NCBI GenBank assembly: GCA_963716565.1 | Contig: OY970318.1 | Coordinates: 644,284 to 708,283, forward strand | Direction of reading: 5' to 3' | Source of the DNA: an uncultured Candidatus Saccharibacteria bacterium | GTDB taxonomy: Bacteria > Patescibacteriota > Saccharimonadia > Saccharimonadales > CAIOMD01 | DNA length: 64,000 nt | In this document: piece after piece, positions 3,031 through 58,804 of the stretch | How positions within the stretch are numbered: the first letter of the stretch is position 1 | Layout: every line of letters starts with the position of its first letter | Notes under the pieces: generated by a model | Database searches by the model: none | What the model was told of the DNA's origin: nothing | The model's input: only the letters and a program-made list of their open reading frames with translations | Translations under genes and position numbers: made by a program

Positions 3031-3893
3031 TTTTTGAGCTCCTTATTTAGGTAAGTTTTTAAATCGTCTTGCCAGTTATGTGATTTAAATCCGACTCCAT
3101 GAATTTTAGATAAATTAAGAGTACTTTGCAAAGGCCTAGGGGCAATATTTTCTTTACCCGCAAAGTATTCTTTGGTTGATATGCCCGTTACTTTGGCGCT
3201 AAGACTGGCTTGTTCATAAATCTTTTTAGCAAAATCAGCCCACGAAACTGATTCGCCGTCGTTACTGACGTTATATGTGCCATATGGCACGCTAGTAGAA
3301 AGCAGATGGTCGATAGCTCTAACTAATTCAGCCGTAAAGGTAGGGCGACCAATTTGGTCTGATACAACTGACGGGTTTATGCCCTTATTAGCTAAATCTA
3401 ACATTGTTCTAACAAAGTTTTTACCGTCGCCAATAACCCAACTGGTTCTAACCAAATAATGTCTAGGGGCTAAACTAACAGCTATGTCTCCGGCTGCCTT
3501 AGTGGCGCCATAAACACTTAACGGGCTGAGTGCTTCATCTTCATCGTGGCTATCTTTTTGGCCATCGAATACGTAGTCTGTAGAAATATGAACCAACACA
3601 ATATCGTGTTTAGCCGTGACTCTTACTAAATTAGCTAAAGCTTTGGCATTAATTTGCCATGCCAAACTACGGCCTTCGGGCGTTTCGGCGCCATCAACAT
3701 TGGTGTAAGCGGCGGCGTTGATTAACACATCCACGCTAGACCAATCAAAGCTATCTACTTGTTTTGGGTCGCAGATATCAAGTTCTTTGGAATCAGTTGC
3801 TATTGCGCCGGGGTACTTTTTTTGTAAAGCTAGGCCCAATTGACCATTGCCGCCAGTTATAAGTATATTTTTTGGATTCATATTAATCCTCAA
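3027..3893 (-). CDS. rfbD: dTDP-4-dehydrorhamnose reductase
   Basis: 288 aa with ILITGGNGQLG (Rossmann), STDYVFDG and YGATK motifs. 4-nt overlap with rfbA. Confidence 0.88.
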   Translation of the reverse strand: MRINMNPKNILITGGNGQLGLALQKKYPGAIATDSKELDICDPKQVDSFDWSSVDVLINAAAYTNVDGAETPEGRSLAWQINAKALANLVRVTAKHDIVLVHISTDYVFDGQKDSHDEDEALSPLSVYGATKAAGDIAVSLAPRHYLVRTSWVIGDGKNFVRTMLDLANKGINPSVVSDQIGRPTFTAELVRAIDHLLSTSVPYGTYNVSNDGESVSWADFAKKIYEQASLSAKVTGISTKEYFAGKENIAPRPLQSTLNLSKIHGVGFKSHNWQDDLKTYLNKELKK

Positions 3894-4470
3894 AAGGAGT
3901 TATGTCTTTTAGGAGTGGTTGTTGGCGATCTTTGTCTGAAATTATGGCTTGGCCTAACGGTATGGGCCATTTAATTGCCAGGCCTGGGTCGGCTAAATTG
4001 GCATGGGTATAGTGAGCATCTGCAGACCAATGGGCGTCTACTAGGTAAACATAGTCGACATTGTTCGACAAGGCTTGGTAGGAATTGCCGCAACCCTTTG
4101 GTACGTATAGGGCTTTTTGTGGGGTAAGCTCAAAAGTTTCGACTACTCCAAAAGTTTCGCCTTTGCGCAAGTCTACAATGGCACAGAATGCTTTGCCCCG
4201 GGTTAGGGTTATGTATTTATTCCACGGCTCGGCATGAATACCGCGAGTGGCACCTAACTGTTCGTTAGACGAAGCATTACACTGAACAATCTTAAAATCT
4301 TTGGGGAAGCCTAGCGTAACCAACTTTTCTAGCTGAAAAGATTCTTTAAACCAGCCTCGTTCATCGCCAATGACTGCTAAGTCTATTAGTAACAAGCCAG
4401 GTATCTTTGTTTTGTGAACGGCTAAGTTGCGGTTTGCGTAAAGCGAAGAATCGTAATTATTAAACTGCAT
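3883..4470 (-). CDS. rfbC: dTDP-4-dehydrorhamnose 3,5-epimerase
   Basis: RmlC-like cupin (GDERGWFKESF, HAEPW). I place the start at the internal ATG at 4470 (MQFNNYD...), 2 nt downstream of the rfbB stop. The longer ORF-track N-terminus runs antisense-free through the rfbB 3' end and looks like read-through. Confidence 0.85.
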   Translation of the reverse strand: MQFNNYDSSLYANRNLAVHKTKIPGLLLIDLAVIGDERGWFKESFQLEKLVTLGFPKDFKIVQCNASSNEQLGATRGIHAEPWNKYITLTRGKAFCAIVDLRKGETFGVVETFELTPQKALYVPKGCGNSYQALSNNVDYVYLVDAHWSADAHYTHANLADPGLAIKWPIPLGQAIISDKDRQQPLLKDITPFED

Positions 4471-4471
4471 A

Positions 4472-5473
<1,002 letters not shown>

Positions 5474-51051: not shown

Positions 51052-52014
51052 ATGAAAAAAATCGAAGATATAAAAACAGTTGCCATAATCGGCGGCGGTC
51101 ATATGGGTAGCGGTATTGCTATGGTTTTTGCCAGCGCTGGCTACCAGGTTAATCTTTTTAGTCGCACGGCCGAAACTTTGCAAGAGGCTATGCAGGTTAT
51201 GAAGAGTGATCTTGCCTTTTTAGCCGAACGTGGTTTAGGCAAATTAGAAGAAGTTGATGCAACTCTAGCCAGAGTCAATTGTACCCAAGACATGGAAGCG
51301 GCTGCCAAAGATGCCGATTATGTGTTGGAGTGTGTGGCCGAAAATATGGAACTCAAGCAGAATATTTTTAAGCAGTTAGACGAGATCTGTAAGCCAGATG
51401 CCATTATTGCTACTAACACTTCTGTTATGAGCCCTACCGAAATTGCCAGCAAATCTGAGCACCGCGAGAGAATGCTAGCTACTCACTGGTGGCATCCGCC
51501 ATTCTTAATTCCACTAGTAGAAGTGGTACAAACCGCCGAAACGGCCGATTGGGTAATTGATGTAACCATGCAGCTGCATAAAGCTATTGGCAAGCGCCCT
51601 ATTCATGTCAAAAAAGACGTGCCAGGTTTTGTAGCTAATCGCTTACAGCATGCCCTAAAAAGGGAAGCGATATCAATCGTGGAGCGTGGCATTGCCGATG
51701 CCGAAACGGTAGACGAAAGTATAAAATACAGCTTTGGGATGCGTTTGCCGGTGGTTTCTACGCTAGAAAATTCCGACATGGTTGGGCTAGATTTAACCCT
51801 ATCGATTCACGAGTATTTGTTGAAACACTTAGAAGATTCGCACGAGCCGTCGCCGTTATTAAAAGAAAAAGTCGCCAAGGGCGAACTGGGCTTTAAAACG
51901 GGTGGCGTAGGCTTTAAAAAATGGACACCCGAAGAGCAAGAAACCTTGCGTAACGCCATGCTCGAAGATCTCACCAAAAGAGTTTTAGAAATACGTAAGA
52001 ATCAGCAAGTCTAG
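51052..52014 (+). CDS. 3-hydroxyacyl-CoA dehydrogenase family protein
   Basis: 320 aa. N-terminal VAIIGGGHMGSGIA NAD-binding motif and a 3HCDH N+C domain pattern (TNTS, PGFVANR). Confidence 0.75.
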   Translation: MKKIEDIKTVAIIGGGHMGSGIAMVFASAGYQVNLFSRTAETLQEAMQVMKSDLAFLAERGLGKLEEVDATLARVNCTQDMEAAAKDADYVLECVAENMELKQNIFKQLDEICKPDAIIATNTSVMSPTEIASKSEHRERMLATHWWHPPFLIPLVEVVQTAETADWVIDVTMQLHKAIGKRPIHVKKDVPGFVANRLQHALKREAISIVERGIADAETVDESIKYSFGMRLPVVSTLENSDMVGLDLTLSIHEYLLKHLEDSHEPSPLLKEKVAKGELGFKTGGVGFKKWTPEEQETLRNAMLEDLTKRVLEIRKNQQV

Positions 52015-52026
52015 CTTTTGGCAATC

Positions 52027-52055
52027 TTGACTATCTGCTAGCAACAGAGTAGAAT
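52027..52055 (+). promoter_or_regulatory. sigma70-type promoter upstream of the tRNA(CAU) pair
   Basis: TTGACT (52027-32), 17-nt spacer, TAGAAT (52050-55). I see no comparable promoter directly upstream of the intact copy at 52220. Confidence 0.55.
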
Positions 52056-52069
52056 TGGCTTTGCCTCAA

Positions 52070-52194
52070 TGCGGGGTAGAGCAGTGGCAGCTCGTGTGGC
52101 TCATAATCGAGCGTTTAGCGAGATTATATGACGAGCCCAAGGCAACGGCTTAAATAAAGTTGCCCTGGCGCGAAGCTATATAACCACAAGGTCG
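52070..52194 (+). pseudogene. truncated, interrupted copy of the initiator-like tRNA(CAU)
   Basis: 52070-52106 is identical to 52220-52256 (tRNA nt 1 through the anticodon loop). A 73-nt insert (52107-52179) is flanked by ATAA on both sides. 52180-52194 is identical to 52253-52267. No T arm or 3' acceptor strand. Confidence 0.75.
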
Positions 52195-52219
52195 CATTAG
52201 CACTTTTTACAAACTATAT

Positions 52220-52294
52220 TGCGGGGTAGAGCAGTGGCAGCTCGTGTGGCTCATAACCACAAGGTCGTAGGTTCGAATCCTACCCCCGCGACCA
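52220..52294 (+). tRNA. tRNA-Met (anticodon CAT), initiator-like
   Basis: Manual cloverleaf. The sequence closely parallels E. coli tRNA-fMet (GCGGGG...GCAGCTCG...GGCTCATAACC...AAGGTCG.AGGTTC.AATCC...CCCCGC), with a weak U1-G72 pair and encoded CCA. Confidence 0.85.
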
Positions 52295-52330
52295 AGAATA
52301 AAGACTCATCTTTTGATGGGTCTTTATTCT
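52295..52330. terminator. long hairpin / bidirectional terminator
   Basis: AGAATAAAGAC-TCATC-tttt-GATGG-GTCTTTATTCT, between the tRNA (+) and the stop of the 52332 gene (-). Confidence 0.7.
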
Positions 52331-52331
52331 A

Positions 52332-52769
52332 TTAGTCTCTGTTTAAAAAGAAATTGAACCAGGCTTGCCAATTTTGGATGATTCTTGGGGTTGAGCTAAC
52401 CTTGGCAGCCGCCACTTCTTCTGGTGTGGCAATATCGGGGTGGGTGTATCTGTTGGCTACTTCGGTTGGCACAGATATGAATTGTTCGCCGGGCAAGGCC
52501 TTGCCAAAGTACTTACGAGCTGCTAATTCTATAAAGGCATCGGTTTTGTAATATTGGTTTTTTAAGGCCATATTTACGGTTTCTTGTTCTAAAACTCCAA
52601 CTTCTTGGCCCAAAGCGCTAATTTGTCTTTCTATTTCATAATTCTTTTGAATAGCTTTTATACTGCTCCAGGTAACCGATAAAGTAACGATTAATAAGAT
52701 GTAAAGCCCAACATTACGGACGTCTAGCAGGGTTTTAAGTGTTTGGTTATTTTTGATTTTTTTAAGCAT
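52332..52769 (-). CDS. septum formation initiator (FtsB/DivIC family) protein
   Basis: 145 aa. N-terminal TM helix followed by a coiled coil (IERQISALGQEVGVLEQE...) and YIE-like ARKYFG. Confidence 0.7.
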   Translation of the reverse strand: MLKKIKNNQTLKTLLDVRNVGLYILLIVTLSVTWSSIKAIQKNYEIERQISALGQEVGVLEQETVNMALKNQYYKTDAFIELAARKYFGKALPGEQFISVPTEVANRYTHPDIATPEEVAAAKVSSTPRIIQNWQAWFNFFLNRD

Positions 52770-52834: not shown

Positions 52835-52940
52835 TTTAAAAAACTGATGACGGGGGCGTAGCTCAGTGGTTAGAGCAGTTGGCTCATAACTAATTGGTCG
52901 CAGGTTCAAGTCCTGCCGCCCCCACCATCAGTTTTTTAAA
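52835..52940. repeat. perfect 15-nt inverted repeat bracketing the tRNA
   Basis: TTTAAAAAACTGATG (52835-49) and CATCAGTTTTTTAAA (52926-40). The right arm starts inside the CCA end. Confidence 0.8.
52852..52927 (+). tRNA. tRNA with CAT anticodon (elongator Met or Ile2/lysidine)
   Basis: Manual cloverleaf: acceptor GGGGGCG/CGCCCCC, D arm GCTC..GAGC, anticodon loop CTCATAA, T arm GCAGG-TTCAAGT-CCTGC, encoded CCA. Confidence 0.85.
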
Positions 52941-58651: not shown

Positions 58652-58663
58652 TCTGCTCCCTTC

Positions 58664-58692
58664 GGTCGCAGGTTCAAGTAGCGCCCACACCA
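58664..58692 (+). pseudogene. tRNA 3' fragment related to tRNA(CAU) 52852
   Basis: GGTCGCAGGTTCAAGT (16 nt) is identical to 52898-52913. The fragment then continues AGCGCCCACACCA, where the intact gene has CCTGCCGCCCCCACCA. Confidence 0.6.
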
Positions 58693-58730
58693 AGTAAAAA
58701 GCCCAGTTAAAAACTAGGCTTTTTACTTGG
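58690..58730. terminator. 14-bp hairpin / bidirectional terminator
   Basis: CCAAGTAAAAAGCC-(13-nt loop)-GGCTTTTTACTTGG. The arms include the CCA of the + fragment and of the - strand tRNA. Confidence 0.7.
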
Positions 58731-58804
58731 TACCGGGGGTGAGACTTGAACTCGCGACCTCAGGCTTATGAGTCCTGCGCTCTAACCAGCTGAGCTACCC
58801 CGGC
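58728..58804 (-). tRNA. tRNA with CAT anticodon (elongator Met or Ile2/lysidine)
   Basis: Manual cloverleaf on the minus strand: GCCGGGG...CTCATAA...GCGAG-TTCAAGT-CTCAC-CCCCGGT-A-CCA. It has a G1-U72 pair, one mismatch in the anticodon stem and one in the T stem. Confidence 0.75.

Follow-up and report, generated by a model that had tools for sequence, protein, structure and literature searches.

The segment at positions 52070-52194 of the DNA analysed here (64,000 nucleotides from an uncultured Candidatus Saccharibacteria bacterium, hereafter the window) is, in the reading that we prefer and that as a whole we consider to have somewhat better than an even chance of being correct, a non-functional remnant of a tRNA-fMet-type gene, comprising positions 1-48 of the tRNA and lying behind the ancestral promoter. 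Under this reading, it is the relic of a disrupted gene copy that later gained an insertion associated with the CAU loop and that is now a co-transcribed leader removed by RNase P. The feature itself is real and heritable, and the best description of it is an insertion-bearing, broken copy of an initiator-type tRNA gene that has become the transcribed leader of the functional copy. The sequence comparisons demonstrate the anatomy of the leader, its homologies, its distribution and its conservation; its transcription, its processing, the order of events and its origin we infer. Among known arrangements, the locus is best described as a variant of the 'tDNA plus displaced fragment' scar, unusual in that the 5' fragment is locked between the promoter and the gene, that this is the case in several species, and that the leader shows unexplained conservation.

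The initiator tRNA is essential, and its gene is usually single-copy in genomes of ~0.8 Mb. Here, the expression of this tRNA seems to need read-through, followed by removal, of its own fossil copy. Should the leader be no more than a scar, it would clearly exemplify the repeated breakage and replacement of tRNA(CAU) genes in CPR bacteria, with insertions associated with the anticodon loop surviving in redundant copies only. If, on the other hand, its conservation reflects selection, we would be dealing with a self-derived leader of a new kind, one with control over tRNA maturation. There is also an implication for genome annotation, in that the standard tRNA finders are silent on tRNA fragments of this kind.

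Anatomy of the locus

The features of the locus are as follows.

52027-52055, plus strand: sigma-70-type promoter TTGACT-17-TAGAAT (10/12 match in the promoter scan)
52070-52106, plus strand: block A of the partial copy, with the 5' acceptor strand, the D arm, the 5' strand of the anticodon stem and the loop CTCATAA (37/37 identical to the intact gene)
52107-52179, plus strand: insert X, with two hairpins, one able to pair with the pseudo-anticodon arm and the other GGCAAC..GTTGCC, and with GGCGCGAAGCTAT as its tail
52180-52194, plus strand: block B of the partial copy, raw positions 34-48 (ATAACCACAAGGTCG; 15/15 identical), homology stopping at the first T-stem base
52195-52219, plus strand: spacer Y (CATTAGCACTTTTTACAAACTATAT), 25 nt, conserved, predicted to be single-stranded, a likely 5'-processing context
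52220-52294, plus strand: intact initiator-like tRNA(CAU), CCA encoded (ARAGORN; Rfam RF00005)
52295-52330, plus strand: terminator-like hairpin, common to the tRNA and the convergent DivIC/FtsB-like gene (inverted repeat with 16-nt arms, 94% complementary)
52332-52769, minus strand: DivIC/FtsB-like gene, convergent

An earlier note on this DNA had described a truncated tRNA copy with a 73-nt insert, ATAA at both borders of the insert and a 25-nt gap before the intact gene, and direct sequence comparison bears out this description in every detail. Block A corresponds to 52220-52256 of the intact gene (tRNA nucleotides 1-37) and block B to 52253-52267 (nucleotides 34-48); the 37-mer of block A occurs exactly twice in the 64-kb window, with 0 occurrences expected (100 shuffles). 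Because the same 4-nt repeat, ATAA, is found on both sides of the 73-nt insert X (52103-52106 and 52180-52183), the insertion point is ambiguous between raw positions 33 and 37 of the tRNA. The similarity to the tRNA ends after 52194, leaving the partial copy with neither a T arm nor a 3' acceptor strand, and the 25 nt of Y separate its end from the intact gene. The check with ARAGORN that the earlier note had envisaged and a search with Rfam yield a single tRNA at this locus, the intact one at 52220-52294; neither program makes a call on the partial copy (in the case of Rfam, even at E<=10). The 113 nt between block A and the intact tRNA (52107-52219) contain no ORF.

The intact gene scores 65.6 bits against Rfam RF00005 and is folded by ARAGORN into a cloverleaf with a CAU anticodon, and, as far as its sequence traits go, 'initiator-like' is a fair description of it. 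The initiator trait A11:U24 can be read from the sequence, and the 1:72 pair is a weak U1-G72 wobble (U1/U72 in the counterpart from L001; relatives are denoted here by L and a number). In the E. coli initiator tRNA, there is a C-A mismatch at 1:72. Three G:C pairs in the anticodon stem are typical of initiators; the stem in question, UGUGG/CCACA, has only two G:C pairs plus a U:A pair, not three consecutive G:C pairs, and this two-G:C stem is common to all 21 relatives. The entire tRNA is 75/75 identical in L016 and L022. The window also encodes, according to ARAGORN, an elongator-type tRNA(CAU) at 52852-52927 and a third tRNA(CAU) at 58728-58804 on the minus strand.

Promoter, and probable transcription and processing

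The site at 52027-52055 is the only plus-strand promoter-like sequence that the promoter scan detects between the 3-hydroxyacyl-CoA dehydrogenase gene and the tRNA, and it is conserved in relatives. The scan and the promoters of the relatives thus uphold the earlier suggestion that the intact tRNA most probably lacks a promoter of its own and is transcribed with a 150-nt leader derived from itself. Two other possibilities can be discarded. A promoter within spacer Y is not found by the scan, and the sole -10-like sequence there, TATATT, would put the start inside the tRNA; as for a leader peptide encoded by the 9-codon ORF in X (ATG at 52128), the ATG is absent from the other leaders.

Transcription would run from this promoter through the leader and the tRNA to the terminator, the hairpin at 52295-52330 being similar to both terminators of L017, and would produce a precursor of roughly 230 nt, from which an RNase P cut at 52219/52220 would free a leader of roughly 150 nt. 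The single-stranded, A/U-rich spacer Y, which structure prediction leaves unpaired in all four leader folds, may assist this cleavage. Structure prediction places X, in the precursor's minimum-energy fold, in a duplex with the pseudo-anticodon arm and leaves the native cloverleaf of the downstream tRNA intact. Given that the 5' strand of the leader is identical to the tRNA's own, it could in principle compete for the 3' acceptor strand, and the 'outer' stem that would form between leader nucleotides 1-7 and the 3' strand of the tRNA represents, as far as can be modelled, a potential cost or a potential control point.

The E. coli metZWV locus is a polycistronic, tandem initiator tRNA operon that is processed by RNase P. 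The likeness to operons of the metZWV type consists in one promoter, several tRNA-like units per precursor and the endonucleolytic 5' maturation of the downstream unit; the difference is that here the upstream unit is truncated, interrupted and unable to yield a tRNA.

Distribution of the leader and the ancestral state of the locus

The 37-mer of block A is found in 14 species of GTDB Saccharibacteria/Patescibacteria, with one copy per genome, and all these species have, a few bases before the intact gene, a promoter of the type TTGACT..TATTAT. The syntenic loci of closer relatives were located via the homologues of the flanking 3-hydroxyacyl-CoA dehydrogenase and DivIC/FtsB genes, and three of these, L022, L023 and L024, lack the leader: their intact tRNA comes immediately after the same promoter and a -10-to-+1 spacer that is near-identical. 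In particular, the spacer TAGAATTGGCTTTGCCTCAA that precedes the partial copy in the window matches the spacer TAGAATTGGCTTTGCCTTAT of L022, which is there joined to |TGCGGGG of the intact tRNA. Thus, in 17 other species (the 14 from GTDB plus L022, L023 and L024), the promoter is located directly before the intact gene, which puts the partial copy in the ancestral position of the gene; the derived part, by the same sequence comparison, is spacer Y together with the intact copy.

In three other species (L017/L018, L025 and L016), the same promoter is followed by a partial copy, namely a tRNA-derived leader of ~116 nt, with the layout tRNA nucleotides 1-13, hairpin, 17-23, hairpin, 25-48, Y, tRNA. 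The leader of L017 and L025 consists of TGCGGGGTAGAGC, a 16-nt hairpin, GGCAGCT, a ~30-nt hairpin, CGTGTGGC, a mutated loop and (T/C)ACAAGGTCG, followed by Y and the intact tRNA, and L016 has a related, more eroded version. In all four lineages, the homology to the tRNA breaks at the same base, raw position 48 (..AAGGTCG / ..AGGGTC in L017, L025 and L016). Spacer Y, which is absent from the leaderless relatives, ends in ACAAACTATAT (11/11 identical in the window, L016, L017 and L025); more broadly, Y of the window matches that of L016 at 18/18 positions and that of L017 at 20/25. Insert X was not found in the leader-bearing relatives L017/L018, L025 and L016, which have lineage-specific G+C-rich hairpins at other positions instead (the D loop and position 24-26), and a CAU-like anticodon loop in the leader is confined to the window. 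Among the tRNA-fMet loci compared, the 73-nt insert thus occurs in the lineage of the window only.

Since this leader layout is common to other species, one of which was assembled twice (the leaders of L017 and L018 come from independent assemblies and are 116/116 identical), the feature is inherited and is no assembly artefact. From the alignments, we conclude that the arrangement of tRNA positions 1-48, Y and tRNA predates these species and that X joined an already redundant fragment in the lineage of the window. The comparison of the locus across relatives that the earlier note had called for reveals the same architecture in independent assemblies; a recent local accident is no longer tenable as an explanation, the partial copy and the spacer being common to at least three other species. 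The presence of the leader is discordant with the DivIC phylogeny: L017 has a leader, whereas L024, at 91% amino acid identity to L017, is without one. A scan of a metagenome collection for the junction of X and the tRNA gave 0 matches, as did a scan for the spacer-plus-tRNA start, although the latter pattern occurs in L017, which comes from a JGI sample, so that this collection is uninformative.

Insert X and its homologues

Insert X is unique within the 64-kb window. Its homologues are found in two distant Saccharibacteria, L003 (6716-6806, minus strand) and L007 (5463-5554, plus strand), where the X-like sequence and the 3' half of an elongator tRNA-Met come after an intact tRNA-Met. The last 12 nt of X together with ATAACC find an 18/18 exact match in both; the local alignment scores of X with these sequences are 24-25, compared with 13 +/- 2 for shuffled sequences (0/500 shuffles reach the observed values), and X is the top match in the 64-kb window of an HMM built from L003 and L007 alone (E=0.094), the alignment covering it from one end to the other. 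The junction of the homologues, GCGCGAAGCTAT|ATAACC, is located in a dead copy of an elongator tRNA-Met and is the same anticodon-loop junction as that of X; at the left, their junction is GGCT|ACCTAT, without ATAA. Searches of the region 51950-52400 revealed no Rfam family for X at E<=10, and four of five viral-contig scans gave no match, likewise a phage BLAST search, the fifth scan matching unrelated phage tRNA clusters only.

On these alignments, X is a member of a small family of sequences joined to the CAU-loop ATAACC in dead, redundant copies of two distinct tRNA genes; therefore, X would be a piece of something that inserts or recombines at this loop. The idea, put forward earlier, of a scar left by an element targeting the anticodon loop has gained support from these significant homologues, which occupy the identical junction of a different tRNA(CAU) gene in two species. 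The companion idea that ATAA is a target-site duplication has lost ground, given its absence from the left junction of the homologues (GGCT|ACCTAT). As to its class, X may be the att arm of an island, a decayed intron or a small insertion element. The MITE-like variant of the last possibility fits the ATAA repeat, which is present at both ends of X; terminal inverted repeats and further copies were not found in the 64-kb window, and the homologues in the two other genomes, at the same target, have a left junction without ATAA.

In L007, a 5' tRNA fragment (GGGCTGTAGCTCAGTGGTTAAAGCGG..) is located at 5317-5345, just upstream of the intact tRNA-Met, which is then followed by the X-like remnant with the 3' half, a nested arrangement that resembles the tRNA-fMet locus.

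Conservation of the leader and its possible function

The leaders of L017 and L025 are identical at 106/116 positions (91%), without indels, as opposed to 55-57% identity at the third codon positions of the DivIC and dehydrogenase genes of the same pair, the neighbouring spacer and terminator of which cannot be aligned. Moreover, no lineage shows a difference between the tRNA-derived blocks of the leader and the live tRNA. Such conservation is too high for plain junk and, unexplained as it is, counts against a pure relic. Both the conservation and the patchy presence of the leader could be accounted for by selection acting on it, and equally by lateral exchange for which the invariant tRNA serves as the anchor; the four distinct sequences are compatible with either.

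So could the leader be a selected cis-acting RNA that gates the folding or the RNase P maturation of the initiator tRNA, or else a decoy for some factor with affinity for the tRNA body? We regard this as unlikely, even if it draws on the conservation of the leader relative to silent sites and on the near invariance of Y. The 'outer' and native acceptor-stem folds are about isoenergetic (-75.0 vs -76.2 kcal/mol in the window, -76.8 vs -76.1 in L017, -72.5 vs -72.2 in L016 and -75.1 vs -68.5 in L025, outer vs native), but equilibrium predictions are unreliable for RNAs of ~200 nt. In L017 and L025, the predicted fold includes a D-loop hairpin that can locally sequester the GCGGGGU of the leader, and the comparison of the two hairpins shows a single C-A mismatch, in L025; no compensatory changes, however, were found among the four distinct leader sequences, and the leader folds are no stabler than those of shuffled sequences (z of -1.0 to -2.0). 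Furthermore, the 17 relatives without a leader, the closest ones included, manage without such an RNA, the inserts vary between lineages, and the leader loop is CAU-like in the window only. That the tRNA-derived leader is specifically a selected RNA switch, in which the identical 5' strand competes for the single 3' acceptor strand and thereby tunes the supply of initiator tRNA in a cell with an ultra-small genome, we consider quite improbable. Under such a scheme, the precursor would split between the processable native fold and the dead-end 'outer' fold, and the balance would be set by the lineage-specific hairpins or by X.

Origin of the interrupted copy

If the leader is a relic, as we prefer to think, an older event at a rearrangement-prone locus would have placed an intact tRNA copy, preceded by the 25-nt spacer, behind position 48 of the original gene. 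Candidates for this founding event are a partial duplication and the arrival of a replacement copy, whether by insertion or by exchange. The old 5' part, needless as a tRNA, would then have collected insertions, X in the lineage of the window and the G+C-rich hairpins in the others. No integrase or other recombinase is encoded between the partial copy and the intact tRNA.

A different provenance is suggested by the group I introns (Rfam RF00028, 66-70 bits) that interrupt the elongator tRNA-Met(CAU) at 33/34 (GGCT|CA..) in L002, L022 and L009, two of the three with an HNH-like ORF. The partial copy could accordingly be what is left of an intron-containing tRNA-fMet gene, X being an internally deleted group I intron, after an intronless copy had taken over. 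This scenario strikes us as distinctly unlikely. Group I introns that interrupt tRNA genes are frequent among Patescibacteria, and the site known for tRNA-fMet is 33/34 (PMC13011429). The X-like remnants of L003 and L007 begin with GGCT|ACCTA, a 9-mer that is also present inside the L022 and L009 introns, and the X hairpin AGGCAACG..AAAGTTG is similar to the last hairpin of the L002 intron. Nevertheless, Rfam finds no match in X or in the L003 and L007 remnants (E<=5-10), in contrast to the 66-70 bits of RF00028 on L002 and L022; an nhmmer profile of the three introns likewise finds none in X or the remnants, and neither does a covariance model of the intron 3' end. The local alignment scores of X with the introns are at the level of shuffled sequences, and only one of 12 remnant-versus-intron comparisons exceeds most shuffles (L003 remnant with L002 intron, 11/500), which is not notable for 12 tests. 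The splice-site bases (a 5' exon ending in U and an intron ending in G) are missing, given that all five registers allowed by ATAA end the insert in T or A, and the 'dead' 3' junction GCTAT|ATAACC that two different tRNA genes have in common is not what independent decay would yield. Compared with the anticodon-loop group I introns of bacteria (cyanobacterial tRNA-fMet at 33/34, and Patescibacteria), X thus shares the location in the anticodon loop of a CAU tRNA but is only 73 nt long, has no catalytic core, no U / omega-G pair and no detectable similarity, and resides in a truncated host copy.

The three introns occupy 2258-2896 of L022 (minus strand), ~1134-1806 of L009 (plus strand) and 3947-4258 of L002 (minus strand), and the genes that contain them are missed by ARAGORN. 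Those of L022 and L009 harbour an antisense ORF of 123 aa whose match to HNH is weak (E=0.0016). The core motifs of the introns look IC3-like. A 2026 survey of complete genomes reports no IC-type tRNA introns in Patescibacteria (PMC13011429).

The alternative of an integrative-island scar concerns the nature of X and of the fragment alike. A 5' tDNA fragment located upstream of a tDNA in the same orientation is a recognised configuration, seen in 159/3919 islands in Islander (PMC4383910), and this same-orientation fragment is what we find at the present locus; an integrase and an island body (>=2 kb) between the fragment and the gene are lacking. The likeness extends to the correct side on which the end fragment lies and to the break of homology in the anticodon loop (PMC4383910), and also to the joining of the X family to the loop core of different tRNA(CAU) genes, as would be the case for related attP arms. 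The differences are that only 113 nt separate the fragment from the tDNA, with neither an integrase nor an island body, that the fragment retains both sides of the loop (1-37 and 34-48), and that a host promoter rather than an island promoter appears to drive the intact gene. The interpretation of X as an island att arm fits the conserved junction, the 'fragment plus tDNA' signature and the recombination activity of the locus, with no integrase present.

A tandem duplication in its simple form, one of the origins considered in the earlier note, is unlikely because the flanks of the two copies, TTGCCTCAA and AAACTATAT on the 5' side, are unrelated; X, moreover, is not repeated. An assembly artefact or a strain-level tandem-duplication polymorphism is hardly credible, for although exact repeats 150 nt apart are the kind of pattern that mis-assembly can make, three species, represented by four other independent assemblies, have the homologous leader architecture, the two copies differ in their 5' flanks, which are unrelated, and X is single.

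Rearrangements at the tRNA-fMet locus

Several observations bear on the history of this locus in other Saccharibacteria. In the closest relative, L022, a 526-aa large serine recombinase (Resolvase and Recombinase domains; 3523-5103, minus strand) overlaps the 3' end of the tRNA-fMet gene, and in L015, which is on the same contig, an inverted 13-nt fragment of the tRNA 3' end (3474-3486) adjoins the dehydrogenase gene. This combination suggests integration at the tRNA, or an inversion there. The usual tDNA-targeting integrases are not serine recombinases.

Three of the seven syntenic loci (L022, L023 and L025) have the whole cassette of promoter and tRNA-fMet gene inverted with respect to the DivIC and dehydrogenase genes that flank it; in the window, L016, L017 and L024, it is not inverted. 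In L017, a stretch of ~50 nt from the 3' end of the 3-hydroxyacyl-CoA dehydrogenase gene is present twice (4411-4461 and 5387-5437), and the duplicated gene ends flank a ~920-nt insertion with a 274-aa ORF, the signature of an insertion that restores the gene end. Interrupted 3' portions of tRNA-fMet lie downstream of the live gene in L016, L017, L023, L024 and L025. The recombinase, the fragments, the inversions and the duplicated gene end together make a recombinational origin of the partial copy plausible. The ORFs that adjoin the locus in L016 and L017 contain no recombinase domains and are unrelated to each other, and therefore the notion of an element carrying its own tRNA is unproven. 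Precise loss via the 13-37-nt direct repeat would restore the leaderless form, which could explain the patchy distribution of the leader.

Many Saccharibacteria possess a G+C-rich 'trailer' downstream of the tRNA-fMet gene and its terminator; the window has none. It is found at 5730-5850 of L017, 1625-1880 of L023, 1660-1815 of L025 and 4470-4602 of L016, and in two copies at 500-860 of L024 (minus strand), and related trailers are present in L004, L006, L007, L012 and L013. The trailer reads like a 3' portion of tRNA-fMet with hairpin and T-loop insertions and ends in ..CCCCGCGACCA. Between L023 and L025, it is 91% identical over 186 nt, with silent sites near saturation, and it matches no Rfam family, tmRNA included. 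It may represent an RNA gene that has escaped recognition, or else a scar of a second kind. Within the T-loop region of the tRNA-fMet 3' fragment, L016 and L023 have an 89-nt segment (4494-4582 and 1765-1853, respectively; 90% identical) in opposite orientations, which suggests a small invertible or mobile element.

Two further features of the window deserve mention. Beside the minus-strand tRNA(CAU) at 58728-58804, there is a second tRNA fragment, at 58662-58692 on the plus strand, a degenerate 3' fragment of an elongator-type tRNA-Met that matches at GGTCGCAGGTTCAAGT (16/16) and continues as ..GCCCACACCA. Finally, the segment 37154-37263 (plus strand) matches the cobalamin riboswitch aptamer model (RF00174) at 36.7 bits, barely over the gathering score of 31.5, in a CPR genome.
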